Origin: Nemertoderma westbladi
Taxonomy: Eukaryota > Animalia > Xenacoelomorpha
Length of the DNA stretch: 64,000 nt
NCBI GenBank assembly: GCA_032718475.1
Contig: JAUCBJ010000472.1
Coordinates: 35,039 to 99,038 of the forward strand
Direction of reading: 5' to 3'
A model generated the notes under the pieces. That model was not told the DNA's origin and ran no database searches. It worked only from the letters and a program-made list of their open reading frames with translations. The first letter of the stretch is position 1; each line of letters starts with the position of its first letter. Made by a program: the position numbers and the translations under genes. Shown here in pieces: positions 1 through 25,600 of the stretch.

Positions 1-551
1 ATACCTTTTGCGTTAAAGAGACAAGTGTTTGATTCATTTGTGATTACTTCAGTTATTTATGGATCTGAAGCCGGGCTGGTTGATAATATTAAAATAATGG
101 AAAAGATCTATACAAGACTTGTGAAAACACTGTGATGTGTCGATCAGCAAGCACTCCTGGTTTCCGTTTTTTAACTGATTCCTTAGAGTATAACTACGCT
201 GATCCTCTTGAAGTCGTTTGCAAACGAATTCTATATAAACCGTCTACAGCGACAACGTTTGTGACATACCGTACTCCAATAAATCCAGATCTATCGGTCC
301 ATCCCGTACACAGCTGCTGTAAACCGTTCATTCCAGATAATCTAAGGGTTAACCGGCTGCGGTTAATGACCCACAAACTGAAAGTTGAAACTGGTCGTTG
401 GAGCCGTATACCAGCTGACCAAAGAGTATGCGCATGTGACAATACATCGATCCAAAATGAACCGCACGTCTTGATCACCTGTCCGATGTCTGAAAATTTC
501 CGACATAACTACACATGCCTACATTTTTCAAGCATGATAAATTTGTTTTAG
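1..551 (+). mobile_element. Degenerate non-LTR retrotransposon (LINE) ORF2 C-terminal fragment
   Basis: ORF 132-551 contains RLRLMTHKLKVETGRW..IP..QRVCAC..IQNEPHVLITCP, resembling the Cys/His-bearing C-terminus that follows the RT domain in invertebrate LINEs. Upstream frame is broken. Confidence 0.7.
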
Positions 552-4440: not shown

Positions 4441-4500
4441 TGTTCTGATAGCCTTTTGTTTATTGTTTCGGTTAGAATAACGTGCCACTGTAACCTGTAA
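4440..4500 (-). repeat. Copy of a dispersed repeat (CAGGTTACAGTGGCACGTTATTCTAACC...)
   Basis: Same motif occurs on + at ~10560, ~17455 and ~22017. Confidence 0.65.
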
Positions 4501-5419
4501 TTATTCTGTTGTATTAAAAATAATTTAACATCGAGGCAAAAGGCGAAAAATCAATTCGCCGATATGGGATTTGCGTCCAGTCTCCCCCCACCCCCCCCCC
4601 CCCCCCCCCTGTCTCAACAACAGGTTAAAGTTTTATTTTTGGGAGTAATCAGCTGTTATTTCGTCGATTTTCCCCTGGAGAGGAATGAGTTAGTTTTAAA
4701 ATACTGTAATAATGTAATAACTGTAAAATACTGTATGTAAGTGATTCGATATTTTGTCATTTTGAAAGTTGCTTATTATGGTTCACATCATGGTTTAAAT
4801 TTGATTTTTCTGCAATAAAAACTCAAATATTTGAAATAATATAAAACCCAACTCAACATGAAGTGAATTACATAATAACAGTATCATTCCTTGTCGGACG
4901 GAGCCTTTGTTATAGGATTGAAAACTGTCAAAGGGTGTGTGCTGGCTGGCTGGATGATATGGGTGTTTTCATAACTTATATATAAATGCAACAACAAAGC
5001 TATCCACATACTGTAGTTACATATAGACTCAAAAGTAGTTCCGACCTCCCTAATTACTTCCTTTCCCATATTATATGAGGTACTGAGGACTACAATTAAT
5101 CCAATGGGCGAGTTTCGTTGTCATCACAAATTGCGCAGGTAATAGGAACTTACAAATGAACGGATTGCATGGTTGTTTTCACAACACTTGATAATTTAGA
5201 CCCAGTAGTATCGTTCCACTCTCTTTCAATATAAACAGGTCCTAATAGTCGCCCCTTTCAGGATGGCCAGTAAATCACCTAGGGCTTGGAACAATAACGC
5301 TTGTATCTACCATTATAGCCCATGTCATAAATATTCATTCTAGAACATTATATTTATTTAAGATGGGGAGAATAAGTCAGCTAGTGGCAGAAACAAGTAG
5401 AAACATTATACTAAAGTGA

Positions 5420-5693
5420 ACTTGAGTTGATTCTATTGGTTGTCTGGTAAACGGTGACTTTGACTTTGCTGACTTATCAACAAAGTTGCACCGCCACAAC
5501 TCCCTATCCCCCATGATTTTCGCAAGATTATCCGCATCTTCAAGGCCAATGTCCTTCAGGAGGCGTCCCACGAAAATCATGGGCTGTCCATCATGCTTTT
5601 TTCTCCATGGAGCTGCCAAAGCACAACATTGTGAACAGGCTGGTCCTCACCGAGAAAACAATGTCCTGCAAAGCGGAGGTGGCTTCGTTCTAG
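5420..5693 (-). mobile_element. RTE-like LINE 3' fragment
   Basis: Minus strand reads HLRFAGHCF, then after a frameshift GQP....RLLKDIGLEDADNLAKIMGDRELWR, matching the typical RTE C-terminus RRLRFAGHC...GRP...DR..WR. Confidence 0.7.
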
Positions 5694-7058
5694 TAGCAAC
5701 CTACCCACCATATCTTACTTAACATTACTTGTAAGTGTATTAATTACCACTAGCAACCTACCCACTATATCTTACTTAACATTACTTGTAAGTGTATTAG
5801 TTACCACTAGCAACCTACCCACTATATCTTACTTAACATTACTTGTAAGTGTATTAGTTACCACTAGCAACCTACCCACTATATCTTACTTAACATTACT
5901 TGTAAGTGTATTAGTTACCACTAGTAACCTACCCACCATATCTTACTTAACATTACTTGTAAGTGTATTAGTTACCACTAGCAACCTACCCACCATATCT
6001 TACTTAACATTACTTGTAAGTGTATTAGTTACCACTAGCAACCTACCCACTATATCTTACTTAACATTACTTGTAAGTGTATTAGTTACCACTAGTAACC
6101 TACCCACCATATCTTACTTAACATTACTTGTAAGTGTATTAGTTACCACTAGCAACCTACCCACCATATCTTACTTAACATTACTTGTAAGTGTATTAGT
6201 TACCACTAGCTACCTACCCACTATATCTTACTTAACATTACTTGTAAGTGTATTAGTTACCACTAGCAACCTACCCACCATATCTTACTTAACATTACTT
6301 GTAAGTGTATTAATTACCACTAGCAACCTACCCACTATATCTTACTTAACATTACTTGTAAGTGTATTAGTTACCACTAGCAACCTACCCACCATATCTT
6401 ACTTAACATCACTTGTAAGTGTATTAGTTACCACTAGCAACCTACCCACCATATCTTACTTAACATTACTTGTAAGTGTATTAGTTACCACTAGCAACCT
6501 ACCCACCATATCTTACTTAACATTACTTGTAAGTGTATTAGTTACCACTAGCTACCTACCCACTATATCTTACTTAACATTACTTGTAAGTGTATTAGTT
6601 ACCACTAGCTACCTACCCACTATATCTTACTTAACATTACTTGTAAGTGTATTAATTACCACTAGCAACCTACCCACCATATCTTACTTAACATTACTTG
6701 TAAGTGTATTAGTTACCACTAGCAACCTACCCACTATATCTTACTTAACATTACTTGTAAGTGTATTAATTACCACTAGCTACCTACCAACTATATCTTA
6801 CTTAACATTACTTGTAAGTGTATTAATTACCACTAGCTACCTACCCACCATATCTTACTTAACATTACTTGTAAGTGTATTAGTTACCACTAGCTACCTA
6901 CCCACTATATCTTACTTAACATTACTTGTAAGTGTATTAGTTACCACTAGCAACCTACCCACCATATCTTACTTAACATTACTTGTAAGTGTATTAGTTA
7001 CCACTAGCTACCTACCAACTATATCTTACTTAACATTACTTGTAAATATATTAGTTAC
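5694..7058 (+). repeat. 57-bp minisatellite, 24 junction copies, derived from an ion-channel exon end plus 5' splice site
   Basis: GTAAGT at 5731, 5788 and onward in exact 57-nt register to GTAAAT at 7042. The unit translates as VSV-LVTTSNLPTISYLTLL. Confidence 0.95.
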
Positions 7059-7317
7059 AATAGTTTTATTTAGTTAGTTAGTTATTAACAATTAGTTAGT
7101 TAAATATATTAGCAAAATAAAATTTACTTTACTTTTATTTACTTTTATTTAATTTACTTTACAAAATCTATATTTAGTTTCAGTATTGTTATTAATTTAA
7201 TACGTCTCAGTTATATTTTTCGTTTCATGTGGTTGTGCTAATGTTATCTCGGAATTTGTTTCATATATGCGTATTTGGTTCAGGATGTATTATATTTCCT
7301 CGAACTTTACTTTATAG

Positions 7318-7438
7318 GATGTTTATATATTGGAGAATGTGGTGTTCCAATCCGTTATGTATGCGGTTTATGCGACACTTTCTCGAACTCGAGATTACGA
7401 TGCAACCATAGCACGATATTACGACTTTATTGCTCTAG
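7318..7438 (+). CDS. Pentameric ligand-gated ion channel exon (M3 to start of M4)
   Basis: tttatag|GAT...CTAG|gtaagt; open frame DVYILENVVFQSVMYAVYATLSRTRDYDATIARYYDFIAL. Phase-0 join to the upstream LPTISYLTLL gives LPTISYLTLLDVY. Confidence 0.8.
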
Positions 7439-7803
7439 GTAAGTTCGGGAGATATTGCACTCGGTAAGTTCGTAGATATTGCTCTAGGTAAGTTCGGCAG
7501 ATATTGCTCTAGGTAAGTTCGGGAGATATTGCTCTAGGTAAGTTCGGGAGATATTGCACTCGGTAAGTTCGTAGATATTGCTCTAGGTAAGTTCGGAAGA
7601 TATTGCTCTGGTAAGTTCGGCAGATATTGCTCTAGGTAAGTTCGGCAGATATTGCTCTAGGTAAGTTCGGGAGATATTGCTCTAGGTAAGTTCGGCAGAT
7701 ATTGCTCTAGGTAAGTTCGGCAGATATTGCTCTAGGTAAGTTCGGGAGATATTGCTTTAGGTAAGTTCGGCAGATATTGCTCTAGGTAAGTTCGGGAGAT
7801 ATT
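7428..7803 (+). repeat. 25-bp (24-25) minisatellite, 15 copies of the exon-end/donor junction TATTGCTCTAG|GTAAGTTCGGGAGA
   Basis: GTAAGT counted at 15 positions from 7439 to 7786; the first is the donor of exon 7318-7438. Confidence 0.95.
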
Positions 7804-8342
7804 ACAATATTTCGGCTCGACGGCTGCGTTGATGCTATTACGTTTTAACAAAACCTTAATAATTAACTGCAGAACTTATTCAACATTATGACAATATAAC
7901 CTTATAGTAAGTAGTATTGTATGTCTGTGGGCCCAGAATAGTATATTTTTATCTAAGTTTATGTGGACAACCCTGCACACCCGTACAGCCCACATGCTGT
8001 CTCTGCTGTAAGAAAGGGGCAGTCTATTCAAATATAATTTTTTCTCACCTTTTCGGATTTTGTCGTTATTATCAAGTAAAAAAGCTCCTATCATGGTTTT
8101 TCTAAATATGTGCAGATATTTTGATTCACCGTTAAAAATCCTTCAAATGTTCATGTGAACCTTCCTCAGTGCGCTCGCTTCATTCTTACTACAGTATTAA
8201 TGTATTTATAGCTCAGGTATAAATAGTTGTTTATTACATTTACTTATTTATTATAATATTATACGTAGGGAATATACAGTAGAAATGTAGAATCACACTG
8301 TATTCGGTAATCAGATTATAATGAGTGGCGGAATTGTTTCAG

Positions 8343-8512
8343 GTGTTACAGCTGGAATCCAATTCATATTCAACATCTGTTTCGGGATTCTCTTTGCCGT
8401 GAAGTTGAATAAAACGAAAAAGGATATCTCGGTGAAAGATAGGGATTACCGTAAACTTCGGGAGTTTATGAAACCTGATGTACCCGAGTTAGGGTTAACC
8501 GAGGCCTACTGA
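8343..8512 (+). CDS. Terminal coding exon of the ion channel gene (M4 plus C-terminal tail)
   Basis: gtttcag|GT completes a phase-1 Gly codon, then hydrophobic VTAGIQFIFNICFGILFAV followed by a basic/charged tail ending TEAY*. Confidence 0.78.
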
Positions 8513-8596
8513 CCGAGGGGCCTACTGTCCGAGGAGGCCTACTGACCGAGAAGGCATACTGACCGAGGAGGCCTACTGAACGAGGCCTACAAACCG
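8498..8596 (+). repeat. Short 15-18-bp tandem repeat (ACCGAG[GAG]GCCTACTG) starting at the last codons and stop codon
   Basis: About 6 imperfect copies; the first copy is ACC GAG GCC TAC TGA. Confidence 0.8.
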
Positions 8597-8747
8597 AACC
8601 TTCTAAACTAATTGCTTTATATGCTGGTGAATATTAGGTCAACTAATGAAAATCCACATTTATAGTACCGTAATTATACTTATTCATTATTTATTATTCG
8701 GTTAATGCTGTATAACATGTATTATTTGATACCTTAAGGTATCTTAA

Positions 8748-9263
8748 GGGGGGGTGGGGGGGGGGGGGGGGGGAGGTTCACCCCCAGTCTTTATTCATCA
8801 GATTTTTTTTTATTTGTTTTCCGCTGTAAACTTTTGTAATTTTCCCTCAAAATTTGAAAAATTTTATTTTTGGTGCAGCCATGATCTACTAAATATATCA
8901 ATATATATATATATATAGTAGGTCATGGTGCAGCACCACATTTGACACCAAAAGAGACCATCAAACACACAGGAATTTCGAAATATTTTGCCATTTTCGT
9001 AATCAGCGCCGAAAATTAGCCTATAGGTATCAAAACCGCAGAAGAGAAAATTAAAGTGAAAAAATAAAGTGAAAATTTTTAAAAATTTTTCAAAAATTAA
9101 TAATTTTCAAATTTTATGTGAAAATTACAAAAGTTGCCATAACTCGTGAACAAAACAACTTATCGAAAAACTGATTTCAGATTCGGAATCAGCATAAAAT
9201 TTTACATCGGAAAACACATTTTAAAAAATCTGATGAAAAAAAGACCCCCCCCCCCCCCCCCCT
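8748..9263. mobile_element. Non-autonomous TIR element, possibly Kolobok-like
   Basis: Poly-G...GTCTTTATTCATCAGATTTTT at left is inverted to AAAAATCTGATGAAAAAAAGAC-poly-C at right; TTAA flanks both ends. Confidence 0.55.
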
Positions 9264-10302
9264 TTAATTAAATGATTCAACATTATTTTTTTTAATTTTA
9301 CTTTGCAGAAATACACTTTATTGCTCGGTTGTGCATTTTTATCACATTTATTATATCTGATTAATAATATAAAACCAGCTGCATATAATTTATAAAACGA
9401 ATTAAAATAAATTCCTATTATTTGGCAGATATTTACTTGGAGCGATTTACTCATTAAATTCGAATTTCATTTGCCAAGTCATATTTTACTCTTCCAAAGC
9501 GCTTGTTGCTATGGCTCTAAATACAATTGCAATGATGTTGGCTCAGAAAATCAAATATTGGAATTAATAATTGTATTCGATAAACTGAACAAAAAGGATT
9601 AAACACGATTGTGTTGTTTATTTAATAAATGTTTTAATAATAAATTATCTAGGTGTTGTTAAAATATCTATGGTTACAGCATGATTATATTTTTATTTGA
9701 TTTTCAGTTTTGGAAAGCAAAACTTACAGTTTAGTATAAGGTAGTCGCCAAAAAATACAATATAAAATAGCGGCTATTTTGCAGGAGTTTCTCTTTGCAA
9801 ACCGATATATTTTTTTGCTGGGATACAGTTGAGCAGGTAACCCTTCTTTACTCTCCAGCTAGTAGTTAGTAGTTCCTCAAAGTTATCAGATTAACGACAA
9901 CAGGGTTGTTCCACACCTTCCTCACCTGTTCCACACTACATTCCGACGCGATAACAACTTGACACATTATGGATGCTGTTTGTTGTACTAATTGATATTT
10001 GTAACCCTTTTGTCTCTTGGATTTCCCATCTCTTTCTGTCGCTATTTACCATTCCAAGTAGGCCTACCCACTTAGGCCTATAAAATATTATATAGGTCTA
10101 CCGTGATTGCATTGTATTGTATATTGTCCTGAGAATAATTACTCTAAAAAAATTTAAAATAAAACTCGTACCATTTTAAATGTATTCTATATCAATATTT
10201 TTACAGAAGTTAATTAATTACAATCACATTCTACTGTAGGATCTGATTGTTCTTATACTTTATCTCTATTGGTAGTTAATTTTAGTCCAGAATTCGGCCG
10301 CT

Positions 10303-11194
10303 ATGGAGCTGCAGAAAGGTGCAGTTGGTCCCCGACACTATTACTGGCAGGATCACAAACCTGTCACAACTAATATGATCTACGGTCTCCATTATAGGAA
10401 GGATCCAAACTTTCAGATGTCCAGAACAGAAAAAAGCGATGCCAAGAAGAAAAATACTTTAAAAGGTTAATTAATACATTTCCGATACACTCGACGCCAA
10501 ACCCGCCTTGGCGAATTAGTATCCCGCCTCAATAATAAATTATCAATTTAGGGAAAGGAGCAGGTTACAGTGGCACGTTATTTTAACCAAAACTATAAAC
10601 TAAACACAATAGCTAACAGGTTACAGTTTTATTTTTGAGAATAATCAGCTGTTATTTGCGTCCAATTTCCTCTGGAGAGGGATGAATTTTTATTGCGTCC
10701 AGTATCCCCCCCCCCCCCCTCCCCCTCCTATCTGATATTTCCATATCTTTCCAATTTTAGAGCCAAAGTAGTGAAAATAATGTTCCATTACAAACATAAA
10801 ACTACGTACTGTAGAGCTACGGGATGAAAAATATGGTAAGGTATTATAGATAATGTCGATTCCTTATTAACATCGAAAAATAAAATATTTCGAGATAATT
10901 GAAAATAATGTTCGTCTATAATATTTACAAAACAATAAATAAATAATTTTTTTTGTTATATTTGTATAATTATATTTGTATAATTGCGATTATTTTTAAG
11001 ATCAAAGCGGTGGGAAACCCCCTACAGTGGCTGTCAAGAATACAGAAATGCTGCCAATTGATTTCCAAGCCAAGTTGTTAAGGAGAACCTTCAACGCGGT
11101 CGGTGAAAACTTTAAAAGTCCACCGGAGCAAGAGAACCTTGGATCCTACTTATGGCATGTACATTCTGGAAACCTTGTACACATACAACATTGA
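10303..11194 (+). other. Possible small spliced ORF or exon remnants of unknown product (10303-10465 joined to 11001-11194)
   Basis: Two GC-richer open segments joinable in phase 1 (MELQKGAVGPRHYYWQ...TLK / DQSGGKPP...HIQH*). Splice sites are weak, no motif recognised, and the exon-like 10761-10835 has stops in all three frames. Confidence 0.25.
10549..10710 (+). repeat. Dispersed repeat copy (same family as 4440-4500 and 4560-4690)
   Basis: Shares CAGGTTACAGTGGCACGTTATT, AATCAGCTGTTATTT..CTGGAGAGG and TTGCGTCCAGT-poly-C blocks with the 4.4-4.7 kb region. Confidence 0.65.
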
Positions 11195-11511
11195 CGATAT
11201 TAAACATTCACATTATACTGTAGAACTATAACTTATTGTTATACAGTAGTTAGAAGTATAAATGTACTGTATGTAGACCTATTCAATCTATTTTTATTGT
11301 TACTTTCTGGGATAAATATGTGCCGGATTTTGAAAACACCAACGTTTATAAACTCAAAAGTACTTTGGGGTATGAATGAGAGCGTGTGTGAGTTCACGAG
11401 TATTAACTAATAATGATTTTATGGAAATGTGGGCGAAAGGGTAACTTACTGAGAAAGGAAAAATTTTATCCAGATGTCGTTACTTACATACATACCGGTA
11501 CATCGACCATG

Positions 11512-14172
11512 CCTCCACGGTCCGCGTTCACAGGTAACACCTCCTCCACAGTTCACATTCACATGTAACTCCTCCACAGTTCACGTTCACAGGTAACAAA
11601 CACTTCCACAGTTCACGATCACAGCTAACACCTCCACAGTTCACGTTCACATGTAACAAACATCTCCACAGTTCACGTTCACAGGTAACACCTCTACAGT
11701 TCACATTCACATGTAAGTCCTCCAAAGTTCACGTTCACATGTAACACCTCCACAGTTCACGTTCACAGGTAACAAACACCTCCACAGTTCACGTTCACAG
11801 CTAACACCTCCACAGTTCACGTTCATAGGTAACACCACCACAGTTCACGTTCACAGGTAACACCTCCACAGTTCACGTTCATAGGTAACACCACCACAGT
11901 TCACGTTCCCAGGTAACAAACACCACCACAGTTCACGTTCACATGTAACAAACATCTCCACAGTTCACGTTCACAGGTAACACCTCCACAGTTCACGTTC
12001 ACAGGTAACACCTCCACAGTTCACGTTCACAGGTAACACCTCCACAGTTCACGTTCACAGGTAACACCTCCACAGTTCACGTTCATAGGTAACACCACCA
12101 CAGTTCACGTTCACATGTAACAAACATATCCCCAGTTCACGTTCACAGGTAATACCTCCACAGTTCATGTTAACAGTTAACACCTCCACAGTTCACGTTC
12201 ACAGGTAACACCTCCACAGTTCACGTTCACAGGGAACACCTCCACAGTACACGTTCACAGGAAACACCACCACAATTTACGTTCACATGTAACAAACACC
12301 TGCACAGTTCACGTTCACAGGTAACAAACACCTCCACAGTTCACGTTCACAGGTAACACCTCCACAGTTCACGTTCACATGTAACAAACACCTCCACATT
12401 TCAAGTTCGCAGTTAATACCTCCACAGTTCACGTTCACAGATAACAGCCACATAGACACGTTCAAAAGTAACACCTCCAAGGTTAACGTTCACAGGTAAC
12501 ACCTCCACAGTTCACGTTCACAGGTAACACCTCCACAGTTCACGTTCATAGGTAACACCACCACAGTTCACGTTCACATGTAACAAACATATCCCCAGTT
12601 CACGTTCACAGGTAATACCTCCACAGTTCATGTTAACAGTTAACACCTCCACAGTTCACGTTCACAGGTAACACCTCCACAGTTCACGTTCACAGGGAAC
12701 ACCTCCACAGTACACGTTCACAGGAAACACCACCACAATTTACGTTCACATGTAACAAACACCTGCACAGTTCACGTTCACAGGTAACAAACACCTCCAC
12801 AGTTCACGTTCACAGGTAACACCTCCACAGTTCACGTTCACATGTAACAAACACCTCCACATTTCAAGTTCGCAGTTAATACCTCCACAGTTCACGTTCA
12901 CAGATAACAGCCACATAGACACGTTCAAAAGTAACACCTCCAAGGTTAACGTTCACAGGTGACACCTCCACAGTTCACGTTCACAGGTAACACCACCACA
13001 GTTTACGTTCACATGTAAAAAACACCTCCACAGTTCACGTTCACAGGTAACAAACACCTTCACAGTTCACGTTCGCAGGTAACAGCTACATAGTTCACGA
13101 TCACAAGTAACACCTCCACATTTCACGTTTGCAGGTAATACCTCCACAGTTCACGTTTACAGATGACAGCCACATAGACACGTTCAAAAGTAACACCTCT
13201 AAGGTTCACGTTCACAGGTGACACCACCACAGTTTACGTTCACATGTAAAAAACACCTCCACAGTTCACGTTCACAGGTAACAAACACCTCCACAGTTCA
13301 CGTTCACAGGTAACACCTCCACAGTTCACGTTCACATGTAACAAACACCTCCACATTTCAAGTTCGCAGTTAATACCTCCACAGTTCACGTTCACAGATA
13401 ACAGCCACATAGACACGTTCAAAAGTAACACCTCCAAGGTTAACGTTCACAGGTAACACCTCCACAGTTCACGTTCACAGGTAACACCTCCACAGTTCAC
13501 GTTCACAGGGAACACCTCCACAGTACACGTTCACAGGAAACACCACCACAATTTACGTTCACATGTAACAAACACCTGCACAGTTCACGTTCACAGGTAA
13601 CAAACACCTCCACAGTTCACGTTCACAGGTAACACCTCCACAGTTCACGTTCACATGTAACAAACACCTCCACATTTCAAGTTCGCAGTTAATACCTCCA
13701 CAGTTCACGTTCACAGATAACAGCCACATAGACACGTTCAAAAGTAACACCTCCAAGGTTAACGTTCACAGGTGACACCTCCACAGTTCACGTTCACAGG
13801 TAACACCACCACAGTTTACGTTCACATGTAAAAAACACCTCCACAGTTCACGTTCACAGGTAACAAACACCTTCACAGTTCACGTTCGCAGGTAACAGCT
13901 ACATAGTTCACGATCACAAGTAACACCTCCACATTTCACGTTTGCAGGTAATACCTCCACAGTTCACGTTTACAGATGACAGCCACATAGACACGTTCAA
14001 AAGTAACACCTCTAAGGTTCACGTTCACAGGTGACACCACCACAGTTTACGTTCACATGTAAAAAACACCTCCACAGTTCACGTTCACAGGTAACAAACA
14101 CCTCCAAAGTTCACGGTCACAGGTAACACCTCCAGTAGTTCACGTTCACAGATAACACCTCCACAGTTCACA
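11512..14172 (+). repeat. 28/32-bp minisatellite (CCTCCACAGTTCACGTTCACAG|GTAACA[AACA]), roughly 90 units, with higher-order duplications
   Basis: Period 28 seen directly (11981, 12009). Identical variant blocks are offset by 463 bp (12283/12746) and 813 bp (12746/13559; 12961/13774). Confidence 0.95.
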
Positions 14173-14765
14173 TTTGTTCGAGACAAACTTACAGTCTGAT
14201 GAGACAATCTGTACAAATTAAAGGCGCCTCTAGGGGCGTCGGACCGACTTTCTCAGTTCTTCGAGGTCTCTGGCTGCGGGTAAGAACACATTTCATTGGC
14301 TGTTTCTGACGGCAGAGGTGGCTGCTGGGGTCGAAATATTTACAATATTGGTTGGGTCGAGTGGTATAGACGACAGCGCAGTTCGGATTGCCCTTTTAGC
14401 CAAGACATCGAAAGTGTAGACGAGTTGATTGTACTTCGATACATAAGAGCTTGGGAAGCTAGCGCAGATCTTCACTGGAAGTCGCGCCATTGGTATTATA
14501 CAGGACGCACTTACGAAGGAGTGTATGTATTTCACCCCTATCTCTTTCCCCAGGTCGAACAAAAAACTCGTATTCCCAGCTACGAATTAATAAATTCGTG
14601 CGAGTGTATTTCCACCAAATACATCCGAAAATATTTGAGACTTTCACACTGCTATTCTGCACTCAAAACTAAATAGTCGGTCCTGAGACGAACTAAGTAG
14701 CCAGTGGACAGAGTGTGCAAGCACTCTGGGGCTAGTTAGCCAGAGATCTATCTCAGTCCAAGACA

Positions 14766-14945
14766 GTAACGTCTTACCTTCCCAGCAACCGCGAACCCAC
14801 TAAGGCCGGCCTGGGAAGAAAGAAGTGCAATACCATGGAGCAGAGCTCACTTCAAGGCTAGTCAGCCAAACTCAGTCCTTGGCGGTAACGTCTTACCTTC
14901 CCAGCAACCACGAACCCGCTAAGGCTGGCCTGGGAAGAAAGAAGT
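14766..14945. repeat. Two ~60-bp direct repeats 119 bp apart in a GC-richer, probably retroelement-derived segment
   Basis: GTAACGTCTTACCTTCCCAGCAACC.CGAACCC.CTAAGGC.GGCCTGGGAAGAAAGAAGT at 14766 and 14885. Confidence 0.7.
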
Positions 14946-15685
14946 CCAATTAGAGCAGAGCCTAGTTTAGCTGTCGAGGCAGCCAACTATGAAGGCTGGT
15001 TTTTGGGACTCATTTTTTCATCCAAATGTTGCCCCTTTTAAACCCAGTGTGGGGTCAATAAGAAGTTGACCCCTAATTATCACCTAAACACAGTTTGTCA
15101 TTCTTGTGCAGTGATTTTACATTCAACCCATGTAAAATATAATTAATACGTTGTTCTTAGACTGACCAATAACCGATTACTGATGATGAATGGCAATAGA
15201 GTTTGCTGGTTATCAATTATTCCTTTATTAATAACTGGGTGAGACTAATAGGTGGGTGAAGGTTGGCGTACTAAGAGGCCAATGATAGAAAGGAGGGAGG
15301 TTGTGTAGCAACCTCCTTCATTGGATAGCAATGATTTGTAGGGGAGTAGTCAGCAATATTGGTTGGAATTGTGGGTGAGGGTGGTTAAGGATGTTTGGGA
15401 TGGAAATATGTTGTAATATTTGATATTAACGGAATGAAATATTATGGTGGGAAAGGGGGAATCATGACAGACTGTCTTTTTGTATGTTTGCCTACGGAGG
15501 TGCGAAAAATTGATTACAAAGCGTCCTCGGGAGGGAAACCAATCAAGATATTTGCAACCCAATAACAATAATGGTAGATTCGGTTGGCACCGAATCAATT
15601 AAGTAAGGGGAACAATCTCACCATTAAACCATATGGGAAACTTAGGTGCAATATAGTGTTGTTGGTGTTAGTGACCGCTATGGGT

Positions 15686-15944
15686 CATATGTATGAGGCG
15701 CCGTTAACGCTAAAAGGTCAGCAATAATATTAAAGGTTTTAAAAAGAATATTAGAGAATTTCAAACATATTTTCGGCCGAAATTTCGGCCGAAAGTGACA
15801 TCAAATGAAAGAACTGAAAAAATGTAACAAAATATTTCGGCCGAAATTTTGGCCGAAAATATGTTTTGAAATTCTCTAATATTCTTTTTAAAACCTTTAA
15901 TATTATTGCTGACCTTTTGGCGTTAACGGCGCCTCATACATATG
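15686..15944. mobile_element. Foldback MITE with ~105-bp terminal inverted repeats
   Basis: CATATGTATGAGGCGCCGTTAACGC... versus ...GCGTTAACGGCGCCTCATACATATG, near-perfect; GGT on both flanks is a candidate 3-bp TSD. Confidence 0.8.
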
Positions 15945-17356
15945 GGTAAGATTGTGAGTACCTGGCGAATATACCTCCCCGTAGATAATACACCAGGCGA
16001 GTAGCGGCCCACTGATAGTTGGATCTCCAGCCCGATGTGCAGTGCAGCAGCAGTAGCAGCAGCATCAGTCAGCGCAGCATCACTGGTTCACACGCACGAA
16101 TTGTGAGGATGGAGTAGTCCATGGGGTTTGACTGTCTGGCCGAGGGTTGCTGATGCAGTAGTATCGGGGGGGTGTTTGGTTCAAACTCTTACAGCGGGCT
16201 GCTAGGGATCTGGCTATGGGGCTGAGGATGTGAAAATTGCAGAGTGGTTCATTGTATAAAAAATGTATCTATAATATAATCAATCGCTGTCAATAAGCCT
16301 AGAAACTAATGTCCCACATTTACATTTACAAACATAACAAGTATTGGAAATAACAGAAAAGGTGACTTACTGGCATTGAATAATCTGCACAATGAAAAAC
16401 CAGCACGAACTAACAGACCAGAGAGACACGGCTTCCAAAGTTTGTAATTGATTTGATTCTCCAAACTGCTCACGCTGACAAAGAACAACCAGAACTGTCG
16501 AAGCACCATCGAACAACAGAACTGCATTTGAATATAATTCGTGTGTGCGTGCGTGAGTGCATGCGTGAGCGCGTGTGGTAACCAAAATTAAGTGACCACT
16601 ATAACTGTAGGCCTTAGATGGCCAAGACTGATGTACTGCACTGCTAAATAGATGACAGCACAAACCAACAAGCTAGCTACCTACATACTGACAACGTGAA
16701 TTAATGACACATGAGAAATAGAGTGCACTATACTTATAGGGAGCTACTCTGTACAGAGGTCAACCTGTTGTATGAAATGTAACATTAAACTAAGTATAAA
16801 CCCCTGCTATTGGCTCGGCTATTAATTATCGAGTTTGTTAAGCACCGGAACCAAAGCTATGGCTACCTCTAATCAGAGCAAATATAATAGCACAATAATA
16901 TTATGGGCCTAAGATTTCGTTGTTAAGTAGATATCACCAATAAATATAAAGGGAATGCATATTGGTTCGCGAAAAGCTTGTTGGAGAGAGGATGGACAAT
17001 ACAGTGTAATAATGTATAACATACCCATGTAACTATAGAGAAGGCCAGGTTTGGTAGCTGTACATTAATCAGCTGACACAGTCTATTATAACCAACGAAC
17101 AATATACATATCATAGTCTACCGAAACATCAGACCTTTTTACTAACTGTATGAACCATCCATACCTGGCTGGCCGCGTAGTCAACAAGCTCACGTTTACG
17201 ATACAGCGCGGCAACCGCACGACTCGGTATCGCAACAATTCACTCACCCAATCAACGCAGATTAATTTCAGGTCTAACTTGTGACAGCAACAATTTTTAT
17301 ACATAAAATAATATAGGGCTTGCTGCCTCTTGGAAGGCCTGAAGCCAGGACTCCAC

Positions 17357-17597
17357 CGGGTGTAAATGCTACGCTGACACCCGACTACCAACAACCAACG
17401 CCAACAACCACTAGTAAAGCTAATTAATGTTATTCATTAATTGAGGGAAATGAACAGGTTACAGTTGAAGGTTATTCTAACCAAAACAATAAACGAGAGT
17501 CACGATCTCAGGTTACATTTTCATATTTGATGTTGTCTGTTGTCGGCAGTAGTTGTCGGCTGTCGGCTGTCGGTTGTCAGCGTAGCGTTTACACCCG
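17357..17597. mobile_element. Degenerate MITE with inverted termini
   Basis: CGGGTGTAAATGCTACGCTGACA versus TGTCAGCGTAGCGTTTACACCCG; contains a nested copy of the CAGGTTACAG repeat. Confidence 0.6.
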
Positions 17598-18199
17598 ACT
17601 CCACCCATGTTATTTAGGGTGAGATATAAGTTGTGAGAAGCAGTTGGTCGAATAGCAATATAGGCCACCTTTTGCATACCGATCTGCATACGACTGACTG
17701 ACCTGGCGAATAGTTTTCCAACTGCACTGTGAATAGACTTTATCTTGAGTGTTGGCAACAGGAGTACCTAAATGTATAAACCCTTATATAATAATCATTG
17801 CACATATAGATCCACGTTACTGCCTAAACTTGGCTAATGTCAGCATAAAATATATTGTGAATTATTAATTACCATTTACGCATATATCCAATGCATAAAT
17901 GTTTTACATGTTATACTCAAATAATTTTATAACAACATGTGTTGTAGACTTTTATGAAAATAGTTTAGAATAATTGGATATGATAATGCATGATTTATAC
18001 TATACAATATACACGTGAGCTAGTAACATTTAGTGTCATATTATTGTAATTCTGATTAATTTATTAACTAATTAATTAATCCTAACTATTGTCTTATTAT
18101 ACACTATACAGTTAATGAAGTTAGTTAAATATGTAGTTATATAGTTATTATGTAGTTTATATAGTGATATTATATAGATAAAGTCTGAACATATTATAA

Positions 18200-18304
18200 A
18201 TGAATATATTATTGGTACTAGTTGTGGCCAGCCATGCCATTTTGCGAGCTTCTCCAGTTGTATATAAACAGGATGTAACATTACCGATGTATCATCCAAC
18301 ATAC
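18200..18304 (+). CDS. PHM: PHM-like monooxygenase, coding exon 1 (signal peptide)
   Basis: MNILLVLVVASHAILRASPVVYKQDVTLPMYHPTY|gtaagt; hydrophobic leader; DVTLP..HP aligns with PAM DIRMPGVTP; phase 0 matches the next exon. Confidence 0.75.
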
Positions 18305-18374
18305 GTAAGTATGTTGTGTTTGTACCATCAAACATAATCTAGAGTTTACATACTAAAAATTTTAGTCATCGCAG

Positions 18375-18500
18375 AGAGGAATAAAAGAGAAGGGAAGAGA
18401 AGAGAAAAGAAAAGAAAAGAAACGCATAGAAGAGAAGAGCAAATAAGATGATAAAGAGAGCGGGTGACAAATCGAAGAGAAGATACGAGGAGGGAAGAGA
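18375..18500. repeat. Purine-rich low-complexity tract (AGAAA/AGAAG-like)
   Basis: Visible directly in PHM intron 1. Confidence 0.7.
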
Positions 18501-20111
18501 CGCTATTTTTACACGTACGATAATATTTAAGTTTTGACTTGAAAAAAACATGAAGATGAGAGAGAGAATTTGGAACAGTCTCGAAGTAAATCTCAGTATA
18601 AGGAGATGTATTAATTTATTATCGCTTAATTCGAATTATTAATTATTATATACGATAATCGAATAGAACTTTTGAATATCGCGAGTTATCGTTTGTTGAT
18701 ATCGTTTGTTGTTGTTATTGATATCCACCCTCCCCCGCAATTTTTCGAGGGGGGGGGGGGGGGGGGGAAGCGCTCCGAACATAAATGTTTGGTTGTTCAC
18801 CCAGCCACTCCATGGCTGGGTGAACATCAGTTTTCAACTGTCCGAGTTTATAGCATTTATAAAAAGAAACAAGGTTTAGTTCTAAAAATACTGTATTTAA
18901 CATCGGGACGCTTTCACTAAGTATGTTACATTTACTCAGATCATTAGGATAACATCGATTAGAGAATAGACCCTAAATGGATTAAAAATAACTATATTTC
19001 ATATAACATTACTTGTACGCAGCGCTCTAGGTCGAAAATAATTTTATCAATATACCTCGTATTCCCTTTTTTTCTCAATAATAGCAAAAATTGGATCGGC
19101 GGGCATTCGAGACCCTGACACGCCTTGTCGACAAAGACCTCAATTTTACAAAAAGTTGAATAACTCTGCTATTCTTGGGTCTTTTTCGAAATTTTAAAAA
19201 TTGGCGTATTCCTCTAATGGATTTACATCGATTGGCATCGTTACTTTCGCCAATTTATTTTTAATTAACTCTTAATTAGCGCTAATTGCTAATTAGTGCA
19301 TTTTTCTGTAGACTCGGTACTTCTGTCAATATCTAGAGAACTACTTAATACGCGACATCGGGACCGCTTCCGTTGGATAGAGGACCCCCTTCCCTACCAT
19401 ATCGCTTGTACATGTTTTTACTTTATTCGCTTACTTCCCGCCGAAATCGACGAAAACGCGATCGACCAATCAGAAATCTTCGACGGTCCGGTAGACCCCT
19501 AGAATTAAATTTTTTGTATTTTTTTTTATGACTTTTTTTTACTTTCACACTTTTTCGAAATTCCCACTCCTTCTAGTCGCGCCGGGCCGATGTGCCGCTT
19601 TGGCACGCGCCGCTGTCCGTGCGCCACCCTTAAATTCGACTGGCGTGTCTGAAAATGTATCTTCGTTAGGAAATCGTATGCCCCTAAAAAATTACGACTA
19701 ATGTGAAGAATGGTGCGATTTCGCAAAAGACACTTTTTTAAAACGCTTATTTAAAAAATTTAAAGGCGAAATCGAAAATTCCGGCTTCATGGTAACAACC
19801 ACGGTGAGTTGAACTAGTTGTGTTTCAAATTTCAAGCAATATGATAAAGATTTGTAGAAAAGTTTGGGGGGATCCCTTGTCATCAGAAAATGACACTATA
19901 TTACGGGTCATGGTGTAATTTAATTTGTGCAGTTACAATCACTTATAATATATGTACAATCATTTCGTAATGTTAAAATTTTGGAATAAAACTATATACA
20001 CACTTGTTGCAAAGTACTTTACAGTGTTCTGATCCTCGTGTGACTTTATTTGAACATTAAGCACTCGGATCACTACACTATAAAGTGCTACTTTACACAC
20101 AAGTATGTCAT

Positions 20112-20302
20112 TAGTTAGTACCAACCAATAGTAATAGGCGCTGAGCTCTAATATCCACATAGTTAGTACCAACCAATAGTAATAGGCGCTGAGCTCTAAT
20201 ATCCACATAGTTAGTACCATCCAATAGTAATAGGCGCTGAGCTCTAATATCCACATAGTTAGTACCAACCAATAGTAATAGGCGCTGAGCTCTAATATCC
20301 AC
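20112..20302. repeat. 48-bp tandem repeat, 4 copies, in PHM intron 1
   Basis: AGTTAGTACC at 20113, 20161, 20209 and 20257. Confidence 0.95.
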
Positions 20303-20332
20303 ACAAATTTCAATTGGCACTGTATTTTTTAG

Positions 20333-20481
20333 AATGATGAATATGTTTGTTACGAATTCCCAACAAATCCCAACAAAACAGAATATATTATTGGGTTCGA
20401 CCCGGTCTTTAAACCACACCGAGTGCATCATATATTAGTTTGGGCTTGTAAACATCCTGCTAGAGCATATGGAGTTGTTTG
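20333..20481 (+). CDS. PHM: PHM-like exon 2 (CuH ligands HH)
   Basis: ttttttag|NDEYVCYEFPTNPNKTEYIIGFDPVFKPHRVHHILVWACKHPARAYGVV-TG|gttagt; aligns with PAM SDTYFC...FVIDFKP..TVHHMLLFGC. Absent from the supplied ORF track. Confidence 0.92.
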
Positions 20482-20890
20482 GTTAGTTAAAATCATTTGG
20501 TTATTTGTGTACGACCAGGTAAAATAATCTACTATCCGAGGAATCGATATTTCTGATTGGAAAATATATATAAAATAAATTCAGTTACTTATTTTATTAA
20601 TGATAATTTATTATTAAATTTATCACAAATATAAATAAAATTTATATCAAAATATTTGGTTAAAATTGCCATGTATTTCAAACTAAAAGATCATTGCTAC
20701 TATTAGAAATGTGCTTTATTGATGTTATGGTTGATTTATATTTATCTCATAACAGATACATTATAGTATAGTATAATTCTAAATTTTAATTTAGACTACC
20801 GGTATCAATTTATTACCAAATAAATCATCCGTTTTTGAATTGTCAACTTAGATTGTCAGTCATAAAATAATACTTGGCAATATTTTCTAG

Positions 20891-21166
20891 GCATTGCGGT
20901 GGCGATAGAACTGCGTCCCCTCGACCAATCCCCGACCGGACTGACTCGGCTTGTCGGGACTCCAGGAACCACACCTTTGTCTACGACTGGGCGATGGACG
21001 CCCAAGGTGGTGTTGTGTTCCCGAAAGATGTTGGATTAGCGATCGGCGGAGACACCGGGGTCGGTTCTATAATTATACAGGTCCATTATGCAGAGGTCGA
21101 TGAGTTCAGTATGAATCCGAGACTAACCGATGATTCCGGAGTGAAGCTGACTATAACCGATGAGGC
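20891..21166 (+). CDS. PHM: PHM-like exon 3
   Basis: (W)HCGG...VYDWAMDA..VVFPKDVGLAIGGDTGVGSIIIQVHY...DDSGVKL aligns with PAM LYAWARNA..LPKGVGFRVGGETGSKYFVLQVHY..DCSGV; phase 2/2. Confidence 0.93.
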
Positions 21167-21587
21167 GTTAGTTTTATTATCTGAGAGATTAACAACTGGA
21201 ATAAATGAGACACATTGAAATTAATTATCAAAAATAAATAAAAATAGTGAAAAGAAAGAACTAATATCGTTGATTATTGTGGATTTGTTTCAATAATTTG
21301 GGAGGAAAAGACTTTCTATTATTAATTTTGATTCTAGGAAGTCATTCTGTTACAGTTTTATTGATTTCAATATTTTTAATATTAAAGTTTTTTTATTTTT
21401 TTTTAATGTTAATTCTGATAATCTCATGATTTTTTTTATAATACTTGCCTGCACATATTATATTCTGATTTAGAGTTGGTTTATTTTAATGATTTGTATA
21501 GGTCTAAGTCATTCCAAAAATACCTCTCCCTGAATTTATCGGCCTTTTTTTTACTTTATAGTCCATATTATTCCTGTTTTGTTTCAG

Positions 21588-21652
21588 ACCCAAATATATC
21601 GCCAGCATTTACCTCATATTGGGTGGATCACAAGCGAATCCTCATTCAGTTG
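21588..21652 (+). CDS. PHM: PHM-like exon 4
   Basis: gtttcag|A-PKYIASIYLILGGSQANPHSV-G|gtgagt; aligns with PAM PLIAGMYL; phase 2/1. Confidence 0.88.
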
Positions 21653-21778
21653 GTGAGTTTTATTGAGCCACTCAGCAGTTTATATTGTTTAATCTTATTT
21701 GTGTTAATAAAATAATAAATGAACAATTAAAAATTGACTCAGCCGAATTTTACTTCACTAATCTATGTATATTTCCAG

Positions 21779-21913
21779 GAGTGACAGAAATAGTTTGTAA
21801 ATGGCCTGACGACGGCCCAACTGTTTATCCTTTTCAGTACCACGTTCATTCTCATTCTACCGGAGTAGCGATCTCGGGGTACATCGTTAGAAATGGTATT
21901 TGGAATGAAATTG
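21779..21913 (+). CDS. PHM: PHM-like exon 5 (CuM HxH motif)
   Basis: VTEIVCKW...VYPFQYHVHSHSTGVAISGYIVRNGIWNEI aligns with PAM VFAYRVHTHHLGKVVSGYRVRNGQWTLI; phase 1/1. Confidence 0.93.
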
Positions 21914-22041
21914 GTGAGTTTGTAGTTAATCGTGCAAAACGACCGCAAGCACCAAATGTGTGTTTAGTTGTTTAAAAACCTAATTTAATTTAATTTAAAC
22001 ATTAAGGGGAAAGAGCAGGTTACAGTGGCGGTGCTGTTTAA

Positions 22042-22168
22042 GGGTCAGGCCACACATTAGCTCTCAACTTTCAACTTTAATATAAATAAGTTTATGTATG
22101 TGTGAAGGTTCCCATAGGCTACAAATGTGTTCAATCTTTAAGTTGAAAGCTGATGTGTGACCTGGGCC
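22042..22168. mobile_element. Small PIF/Harbinger-like MITE nested in a dispersed-repeat copy
   Basis: GGGTCAGGCCACACATTAGC versus GCTGATGTGTGACCTGGGCC, TAA on both sides. Removing it restores CAGGTTACAGTGGC...TAACCAAAACAA. Confidence 0.65.
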
Positions 22169-22539
22169 TAACCAAAACAACATGCGACCAATTTGCGCTG
22201 GAGATGACTTTTATCATTGTGGTTAATGTGCGCCACTATGTGCCGCACTATGTGCACCACAATGTGAGCCACAATCGCACAAAGTATGCCACTATCTGAA
22301 GTTTGCAGGTAATATGAACCACGCTGCCATCATAACTAAAAGTACAGGATATTTTTTGATGGGTTCCGGTAAGTCGAAAAATTTAATGATTATTTAAAGA
22401 AAGTAAATGTATAAAGGTGACATTAAATGAAAGTAAAGTCATGCAATTTGATATATTCAACAAAATGTGCCTTGCTAAAAAAATCTTTGAAGCCCTTAGA
22501 TTCTGTACGATGTTTGAATTAAATGTTAACCAATTTCAG

Positions 22540-22669
22540 GGAAGAAAAGCCCAAAATTGCCGCAAAGATTTTATCCGACCACAACTAAAGGACTTTCTAT
22601 TAGACCAGGAGATTACATCGCGGGGAGGTGTACCTACTACAACAACCGGAATGAACGAGTAGTAAATGG
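22540..22669 (+). CDS. PHM: PHM-like exon 6; gene continues beyond the window
   Basis: atttcag|GG-KKSPKLPQRFYPTTTKGLSIRPGDYIAGRCTYYNNRNERVVN-GG|gtaggt; aligns with PAM GRQNPQLPQAFYP...GDILAARCVFTGEGRTEATHIG. The EMCN (Met ligand) exon is not in the window. Confidence 0.92.
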
Positions 22670-25600
22670 GTAGGTGTACCAACTACACCAACCAGAATGA
22701 ACGAGTAGTGAATGGGTAGGTGTACCAACTACAACAACCGGAATGAACGAGTAGTGAATGGGTAGGTGTACCAACTACAATAACCGGAATGAACGAGTAG
22801 TGAATGGGTAGGTGTACCAACTACAATAACCGGAATAAACGAGTAGTGAATGGGTAGGTGTACCAACTACAATAACAACTGGAATAAACGAGTAGTAAAT
22901 GGGTAGGTGTACCAACTACAATAACAACTGGAATAAACGAGTAGTGAATGGGTAGGTGTACCAACTACAATAACAACTGGAATAAACGAGTAGTAAATGG
23001 GTAGGTGTACCAACTACAATAACAACTGGAATAAACGAGTAGTAAATGGGTAGGTGTACCAACTACAATAACAACTGGAATAAACGAGTAGTAAATGGGT
23101 AGGTGTACCAACTACAATAACAACTGGAATAAACGAGTAGTAAATGGGTAGGTGTACCAACTACAATAACAACTGGAATAAACGAGTAGTAAATGGGTAG
23201 GTGTACCAACTACAATAACAACTGGAATGGACGAGTAGTGAATGGGTAGGTGTACCAACTACAATAACAACTGGAATGAACGAGTAGTGAATGGGTAGGT
23301 GTACCAACTACAATAACAACTGGAATAAACGAGTAGTAAATGGGTAGGTGTACCAACTACAATAACAACTGGAATGGACGAGTAGTGAATGGGTAGGTGT
23401 ACCAACTACAATAACAACTGGAATAAACGAGTAGTAAATGGGTAGGTGTACCAACTACAATAACAACTGGAATGGACGAGTAGTGAATGGGTAGGTGTAC
23501 CAACTACAATAAAAACTGGAATGAACGAGTAGTGAATGGGTAGGTGTACCAACTACAATAACAACTGGAATAAACGAGTAGTGAATGGGTAGATCTACCA
23601 ACTACAATAACAACTGGAATAAACGAATAGTGAATGGGTAGGTGTACCAACTACAATAACAACTGGAATGGACGAGTAGTGAATGGGTAGGTGTACCAAC
23701 TACAATAACAACTGGAATAAACGAGTAGTGAATGGGTAGGTGTACCAACTACAATAACAACTGGAATAAACGAGTAGTGAATGGGTAGGTGTACCAACTA
23801 CAATAACAACTGGAATAAACTAGTAGTGAATGGGTAGGTGTACCAACTACAATAACAACTGGAATAAACGAGTAGTGAATGGGTAGGTGTACCAACTACA
23901 ATAACAACTGGAATAAACGAGTAGTGAATGGGTAGGTGTACCAACTACAATAACAACTGGAATAAACGAGTAGTGAATGGGTAGGTGTACCAACTACAAT
24001 AACAACTGGAATAAACGAGTAGTGAATGGGTAGGTGTACCAACTACAATAACAACTGGAATAAACGAGTAGTGAATGGGTAGGTGTACCAACTACAATAA
24101 CAACTGGAATAAACGAGTAGTGAATGGGTAGGTGTACCAACTACAATAACAACTGGAATAAACGAGTAGTGAATGGGTAGGTGTACCAACTACAATAACA
24201 ACTGGAATAAACGAGTAGTGAATGGGTAGGTGTACCAACTACAATAACAACTGGAATAAACGAGTAGTGAATGGGTAGGTGTACCAACTACAATAACAAC
24301 TGGAATAAACGAGTAGTGAATGGGTAGGTGTACCAACTACAATAACAACTGGAATAAACGAGTAGTGAATGGGTAGGTGTACCAACTACAATAACAACTG
24401 GAATAAACGAGTAGTGAATGGGTAGGTGTACCAACTACAATAACAACTGGAATAAACGAGTAGTGAATGGGTAGGTGTACCAACTACAATAACAACTGGA
24501 ATAAACGAGTAGTGAATGGGTAGGTGTACCAACTACAATAACAACTGGAATAAACGAGTAGTGAATGGGTAGGTGTACCAACTACAATAACAACTGGAAT
24601 AAACGAGTAGTGAATGGGTAGGTGTACCAACTACAATAACAACTGGAATAAACGAGTAGTGAATGGGTAGGTGTACCAACTACAATAACAACTGGAATAA
24701 ACGAGTAGTGAATGGGTAGGTGTACCAACTACAATAACAACTGGAATAAACGAGTAGTGAATGGGTAGGTGTACCAACTACAATAACAACTGGAATAAAC
24801 GAGTAGTGAATGGGTAGGTGTACCAACTACAATAACAACTGGAATAAACGAGTAGTGAATGGGTAGGTGTACCAACTACAATAACAACTGGAATAAACGA
24901 GTAGTGAATGGGTAGGTGTACCAACTACAATAACAACTGGAATAAACGAGTAGTGAATGGGTAGGTGTACCAACTACAATAACAACTGGAATAAACGAGT
25001 AGTGAATGGGTAGGTGTACCAACTACAATAACAACTGGAATAAACGAGTAGTGAATGGGTAGGTGTACCAACTACAATAACAACTGGAATAAACGAGTAG
25101 TGAATGGGTAGGTGTACCAACTACAATAACAACTGGAATAAACGAGTAGTGAATGGGTAGGTGTACCAACTACAATAACAACTGGAATAAACGAGTAGTG
25201 AATGGGTAGGTGTACCAACTACAATAACAACTGGAATAAACGAGTAGTGAATGGGTAGGTGTACCAACTACAATAACAACTGGAATAAACGAGTAGTGAA
25301 TGGGTAGGTGTACCAACTACAATAACAACTGGAATGAACGAGTAGTGAATGGGTAGGTGTACCAACTACAATAACAACTGGAATAAACGAGTAGTAAATG
25401 GGTAGGTGTACCAACTACAATAACAACTGGAATAAACGAGTAGTGAATGGGTAGGTGTACCAACTACAATAACAACTGGAATAAACGAGTAGTGAATGGG
25501 TAGGTGTACCAACTACAATAACAACTGGAATGAACGAGTAGTGAATGGGTAGATGTACCAACTACAATAACAACTGGAATAAACGAGTAGTGAATGGGTA

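Follow-up and report, generated by a model that had tools for sequence, protein, structure and literature searches.

The DNA stretch investigated here comprises 64,000 nt of the Nemertoderma westbladi genome (contig JAUCBJ010000472.1, positions 35,039 to 99,038 of the forward strand; hereafter the window). It contains parts of two genes, a putative ion channel-like gene and a PHM/PAM-like monooxygenase gene, and three tandem arrays whose first units span the 3′ end of an exon together with its 5′ splice site (donor). Over the whole window, Tandem Repeats Finder (TRF) returned 22 rows, which collapsed into 16 loci. Six of these reached a score of at least 100 and a period of at least 15, all on the + strand: a 57-bp array with 23.9 copies (5694-7058), a 25-bp array with 15.2 copies (7428-7803), a 17-bp array with 5.1 copies (8501-8585), a 28-bp array with ~91 copies (11512-14171), a 48-bp array with 4 copies (20112-20303) and a 49-bp array with ~842 copies (22622-64000), which is open-ended at the window end. 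A preliminary description of this DNA had reported the 57-, 25-, 28- and 49-bp arrays, all of which are present where it placed them; it had omitted the 48-bp intronic and the 17-bp stop-codon arrays, and its "49-bp" unit measures 46 bp in the first five units. Its placement of + strand arrays that extend into the intron in at least two different genes agrees with our assignment of the 57- and 25-bp arrays to the channel-like gene and of the 46/49-bp array to the PHM gene. The proposed origin of the units from an exon 3′ end plus donor is backed by homology for these three; the candidate exon stretch at the 28-bp array has no homology and lies outside the PHM coding sequence.

Donor likeness was scored as matches to MAG|GTRAGT, with random circularised pieces of the window's unique sequence (+ strand) as the control. 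An equal donor match occurred in 12% of the random pieces for the 57-mer (7/9 positions), 0.8% for the 25-mer (8/9), 6% for the 28-mer (7/9) and 34% for the 46-mer (6/9). A donor-like motif inside a unit is thus weak evidence, and each array was therefore checked against gene structure.

Single channel exons gave no match in Pfam, NCBIfam or PDB, no word-indexed protein match, and nothing usable from the ESM Atlas. Homologs were retrieved with a degenerate pattern that covers the 10 codons leading up to the donor of the 57-bp array and nothing downstream of it. Among the 55 loci found, translation gave the motif in 27, and channel M2 context was present in 17; the remaining 38 were discarded as chance matches. 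GT directly follows the M2-M3 motif in 12 of 12 genomic homologous loci, and all five intron-less homologous contigs read on in frame past it. Therefore, the 57-bp unit joins 37 nt of exon to 20 nt of an intron whose position is conserved, which overturned an initial doubt about this exon, as its coding score was no better than that of pseudo-exons. Two of the homologs match PF02932 slightly below the cut-off (24.9-27.3 vs 28.1 bits); the channel exons of the window align to the homologs, yet alone give no Pfam match. Judged from these comparisons, the first host gene is likely a pentameric ligand-gated ion channel-like gene; an XK-related identity, initially considered for this transmembrane gene, was dropped once the channel homologs turned up.

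The 57-bp array (5694-7058) begins with the last 37 nt of the M2-M3 exon, its first donor stands directly after 5730, and CTT|GTAAGT is kept in 23 of the 24 copies. The unit is 19 codons long, and no stop interrupts the exon frame in any of the 24 units. The next channel-like exon (7318-7438, M3 region, phase 0 to phase 1) starts at the first post-intron residue of the homologs. It aligns to all five intron-less homologs (z 3.1-4.3; 1-13 of 1000 shuffles) in the frame that is also the best one in the coding model; its other open frame aligns worse and out of register. The phase-compatible last coding exon (8343-8512, M4 region) ends in TGA and is not significant alone, while the homolog alignment runs across the junction of both exons with z 4.0-7.3. 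Because exon 7318-7438 aligns to the homologs and the alignment continues into 8343-8512, the 25-bp array (7428-7803) sits at the next donor of the channel gene. Its unit comprises the last 11 nt of exon 7318-7438 and 14 nt of intron, the GTAAGT donor is present in 15 of 15 copies, and an in-frame stop occurs at 7465. Microhomology of 3-4 nt is found at both ends of each array (TATT for the 25-bp, TAG for the 57-bp array). The 17-bp array of five copies (8501-8585) has no donor; its first unit spans the final codons of the same gene together with its stop codon. Two similar stretches of acceptor plus exon start (AG|GATGT..), 33 nt apart, were also seen at 7276-7339; they may be the two copies left by an old duplication of the exon 7318 acceptor.

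The 5′ part of the M2-M3 exon was not found in window positions 1-22620 by a profile and alignment search whose positive controls came from the profile's own training set, and neither M1-M2 nor the extracellular domain was found within the window. The channel gene may thus either be broken at 5693 or extend upstream of the window. A candidate exon at 5262-5415 is phase-compatible and was rejected, having no similarity to the channel homologs. The stretch 5456-5693, which adjoins the first 57-bp unit where the 5′ exon part is missing, may be the antisense C-terminus of a long interspersed nuclear element (LINE).

The second host gene is, by homology, a copper monooxygenase of the PHM/PAM type (peptidylglycine monooxygenase), with six coding exons in the window (18200-18304, 20333-20481, 20891-21166, 21588-21652, 21779-21913 and 22540-22669; + strand). 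Together they give 286 codons without a stop and show 32-38% identity in an alignment to 10 homologs. The gene begins at the ATG at 18200, with a signal-peptide-like stretch within the first exon. The exons in 20333-22669 match PF01082 and PF03712 as well as solved PHM structures, and the PHM histidine motifs are present; named relatives among the library matches are PHM-like proteins of a crinoid, sea urchins, a limpet, an annelid and a coral (~40-48% identity). The PF03712 match extends to residue 43 of the 44 in exon 22540-22669, whose donor splits a Gly that all 10 aligned homologs share, directly ahead of their EMC motif. The remaining exon or exons, including this C-terminal motif, were not found in the window and would lie beyond the array.

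This last donor is the starting point of the largest array (22626-64000), which spans at least 41.4 kb in ~842 units, each of which corresponds to the last 44 nt of exon 22540-22669 plus GT. Units 1-5 are 46 bp long and differ from the exon unit at 2-4 positions (units 2-5); afterwards the length is 49-50 bp, and the median rises to 7 mismatches over 840 units. Similarity thus decays away from the exon, as expected for an array grown outward from it. TGG|GTAGGT is kept at 718 of 841 junctions. As an in-frame stop at 22671 lies right behind the first donor, splicing at any later donor would yield an enzyme that ends short of the copper-ligating methionine of PHM. The 49- and 50-bp variants occur in runs and short higher-order blocks, no unique sequence interrupts the 41 kb, and one exon CpG is changed to TpG in the consensus.

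Two further arrays differ in their relation to genes. The 48-bp array of four copies (20112-20303) lies wholly in PHM intron 1, ends 29 nt before exon 20333 and contains neither an exon nor a genuine donor in its unit; it is a counter-example, an array without exon content. The 28-bp array (11512-14171, CAG|GTAACA) is preceded by a 60-nt stretch (11474-11533) with an acceptor-like AG, a 7/9 donor, a high GC content and all three frames open, a possible exon. It scores well in a small, GC-influenced coding model, in which 0 and 2.5% of 204 pseudo-exons score as high; comparable open pseudo-exons precede ~10-19% of random donor-like sites, and comparisons with Pfam, the library and the PHM homologs gave no homology. 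We rejected it as a PHM exon because PHM has its own ATG and signal peptide at 18200. Together with two other exon-like open stretches between both genes on the + strand (10291-10465 and 11001-11170, likewise without Pfam match or PHM homology), it could belong to an unidentified gene that owns the candidate donor of the 28-bp array.

Self-BLAST of positions 1-22620 found no cross-match of the arrays to one another: the units are unrelated between loci, and each matches its own exon. They are of local origin and do not represent a dispersed family. The arrays are also young, with 92-96% matches, so that mostly intact donors require no selection. This bears on the idea that the arrays are functional, either as ladders of alternative donors tuning expression or, in the case of the 57-bp array, as an in-frame coding repeat that lengthens the M2-M3/M3 region of the channel. 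The 19-codon unit with its frame open in all 24 copies and the largely intact donors (23/24, 15/15 and 718/841) are what such a role would lead one to expect. Yet the youth of the arrays accounts for the donors, in-frame stops occur at 7465 and right after the first PHM donor, and the units at one and the same channel donor differ between lineages (see below); we regard a function as highly improbable.

To evaluate the local excess, each array was collapsed to one unit (18,168 nt remaining) and eight homology-backed donors were considered. The test is post hoc, as the window had been flagged for this very pattern from a very large scan. The first units of three of the six arrays cover a homology-backed donor, corresponding to three of the eight donors. 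Random placement of six arrays gives an expectation of 0.09 (P 6e-5), counting all 16 TRF loci gives 0.15 (P 4e-4), and limiting placement to the gene spans gives 0.26-0.31 (P 1-2e-3). The cluster in this window is genuine and exceeds what simple chance would be expected to give. A chance cluster in a repeat-rich genome, without any enrichment and surfacing because the window was picked among ~250,000, would fit the post hoc nature of the test, the P of up to 2e-3 under the most conservative null and the 13 of 16 TRF loci that are not at a homology-backed donor. We consider it rather unlikely, since two of three other lineages, whose loci were fetched irrespective of repeats, show donor duplications as well.

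Within this window, and post hoc, an excess at donors of the kind suggested beforehand is seen, with 3 arrays observed against 0.09-0.31 expected; a restriction to donors is not. Three of eight donors and none of seven acceptors carry an array, a difference that is not significant (Fisher P 0.12 one-sided, 0.2 two-sided), and one array lies on a stop codon. Specificity for 5′ splice sites is therefore not supported by these counts. The numbers nevertheless lean in the direction expected if a mutational process targets 5′ splice sites, for instance through pausing, R-loops or breaks that are coupled to transcription or splicing and leave short duplications on repair, which would make donors the preferred places of array birth. 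All boundary arrays extend 3′ from their exon, and two of them lie in a gene that may be broken. Polarity towards 3′ is also expected from survival of the first copy, though, and arrays occur in an intron interior, too.

The channel homologs allowed us to follow the M2-M3 donor into other lineages. By intron similarity, the 12 genomic loci fall into three lineages, namely 10 related loci and the single loci L007 and L016. The latter two were retrieved by the pattern ending at the exon end, regardless of repeats; multi-copy loci match such a pattern somewhat more easily, and the sample is three lineages. L007, on another organism's contig, carries a 50-bp array of 2.9 copies over the same donor (887-1033, - strand), with a unit that differs from that of the window; the chance of its single array falling at the donor is ~0.03. 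In L016 (892-1131, - strand) the same donor is present three times within 232 nt, within incomplete copies of the exon at distances of 68 and 116 nt. Several differences, mostly at synonymous sites, separate the outer copies, and the arrangement may have a greater age or a more complex history than a simple minisatellite; a 22-bp intronic array of 17 copies begins ~110 nt downstream of the last donor. No array was found at this donor in the 10 related loci. The M2-M3 donor is thus duplicated in two of three further lineages, or three of four counting the window, with units that differ between lineages. Independent hits on one donor argue for a process targeting donors; the 10 related loci without an array there and the presence of lancelet mirages (boundary repeats, see below) at both intron boundaries (PMC3087553, in its accessible part) argue against it, and overall we think this process unlikely.

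The explanation we prefer, with a probability of roughly 0.6, is that the window contains three unrelated arrays of the kind known as mirages in lancelet and from the human F7 gene, seeded at microhomology, amplified by slippage or unequal exchange, and kept by use of the first donor and by anchoring. Ordinary duplications, through slippage or end-joining, may have been seeded at 3-4 nt of microhomology, as the ends of the 57- and 25-bp arrays suggest, with slippage or unequal exchange as the likely means of amplification. When a duplication runs across a donor, the upstream copy and the exon would remain intact. The first donor would still be used, by analogy with F7 and the lancelet genes; the preliminary description had likewise suggested that such duplications survive because the first donor stays intact, which fits the F7 experiments described in the accessible part of PMC1557585. 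Mis-splicing within the 25- and 46/49-bp arrays meets stops, so that nonsense-mediated decay is predicted to remove the rare mis-spliced products of these two; it would not act on those of the 57-bp array, where mis-splicing would add 19-residue repeats because the unit is in frame and open throughout. We further infer an anchoring effect, in which a first unit under protection keeps regenerating the array and prevents it from being deleted cleanly. An excess at exon ends might then reflect survivorship at the edges of constrained sequence in a repeat-prone genome from whose exons internal repeats are purged, rather than mutagenesis directed at 5′ splice sites. Anchoring predicts an excess at all constrained edges, with which the stop-codon 17-bp array is consistent.

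Several points weigh against this explanation. Tolerance explains persistence and polarity, but it predicts parity with intron interiors and no excess, which leaves the excess to the anchoring step that we infer; moreover, none of the seven acceptors carries an array. Passive survival would not easily produce the duplications of the M2-M3 donor in all of L007, L016 and the window, which hint at a hotspot. If the channel gene is broken, as its missing 5′ exon part allows, the 57- and 25-bp arrays would not be subject to selection on splicing. Nor is the first donor universally the one used, as the human genes 6-16 and CBS do use extra donors (PMC1557585, accessible part). A bolder generalization, which appears doubtful to us, would make 5′ splice sites birthplaces of repeats in some marine invertebrate lineages, with the same donors hit repeatedly in unrelated animals (the channel donor in three of four lineages) and with a satellite of tens of kb inside a working neuropeptide-processing gene, whose more than 700 identical decoy donors the spliceosome still crosses. 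Were new duplications to show an excess specific to donors across the genome, splicing would be tied to the birth of repeats, and the question of mechanism raised in the lancelet papers would be answered.

The window also contains several other elements. On the - strand, a 491-codon open frame (2984-4459) encodes a DDE_1 transposase domain (PF03184, E 1e-22), and a second piece lies at 2304-2753. A 152-codon open stretch at 93-551 (+) has no Pfam match and resembles the cysteine-rich C-terminus of LINE open reading frame 2. Two 80-bp direct repeats (14752-14950; 119 bp apart, 90% identical), each with a donor-like AAG|GTAAGA on the - strand, adjoin a degenerate mobile-element-like stretch; positions 14190-14590 may represent a degenerate tyrosine recombinase. 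A palindromic element of ~260 bp (15686-15944), 86% self-complementary, is similar to miniature inverted-repeat transposable elements.

Repeats of this kind have been described before, contrary to the suggestion that the phenomenon might be undescribed. According to the accessible parts of two lancelet papers, repeats spanning exon-intron boundaries were named "mirages" (PMC3087553), occur at both intron boundaries and leave splicing undisturbed (PMC3087553, PMC3902484). They have unrelated units of 10-160 bp and were found in Adh3, the globins BflGb6 and BflGb9, troponin C and PGBD5 (PMC3087553, PMC3902484); in PGBD5, unrelated 60- and 108-bp arrays abut the 5′ splice sites at exons 3 and 4 (PMC3902484). 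The authors proposed a possibly general phenomenon of the lineage, with an "unclear" mechanism (PMC3087553, PMC3902484). As in the window, lancelet mirages are tandem copies of exon-intron boundaries with unrelated units, sometimes with several arrays in one gene. They differ in that the globin and PGBD5 arrays, as far as described there, have 2-7 units vs ~842 units over at least 41 kb in the PHM array, and in that both boundaries are affected, whereas the window shows donor-side and stop-codon cases only.

In human, the accessible text of PMC1557585 lists minisatellites whose first unit lies across an exon-intron boundary, i.e., the 37-bp variable number tandem repeat in intron 7 (IVS7) of F7 and those in CBS IVS13, 6-16, LMNB2 and PDGF intron 4, and reports that only the most upstream donor was used in F7 minigenes. 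Here, too, the first unit consists of an exon end plus donor, and identical pseudo-donors are repeated into the intron. The F7 class has 5-25 copies, in contrast to at least 718 identical pseudo-donors in the PHM array, the unit of which is also nearly all exon (44 of 46 nt), unlike those of the F7 class. Internal tandem repeats at exon-intron boundaries were further catalogued in human segmental-duplication genes (PMC2812944), a systematic record of variable tandem repeats at the kind of boundary that the window's arrays cover; the accessible part of that study covers recent human paralogs only, concerns intron formation and contains no test of donors vs acceptors or of random placement. Similarly, the available part of PMC10078293 maps repeats affecting splicing and contains no donor-enrichment test. 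Our literature search, which left most subscription papers outside its reach, found no genome-wide test of donor enrichment.

In all three cases of the window (57, 25 and 46/49 bp), the first unit spans a genuine boundary and head-to-tail copies repeat the splice signal into the intron, as in mirages and F7-type minisatellites. They add three well-anchored cases to a known class, one of them extreme: a satellite that arose from the end of a coding exon and reaches at least 41 kb, in which the choice of the first donor over hundreds of identical ones could be studied in a natural setting. Thus, the three arrays are further members of the described class of boundary minisatellites, and what sets them apart is how large the PHM array is and that one channel donor has been duplicated repeatedly.

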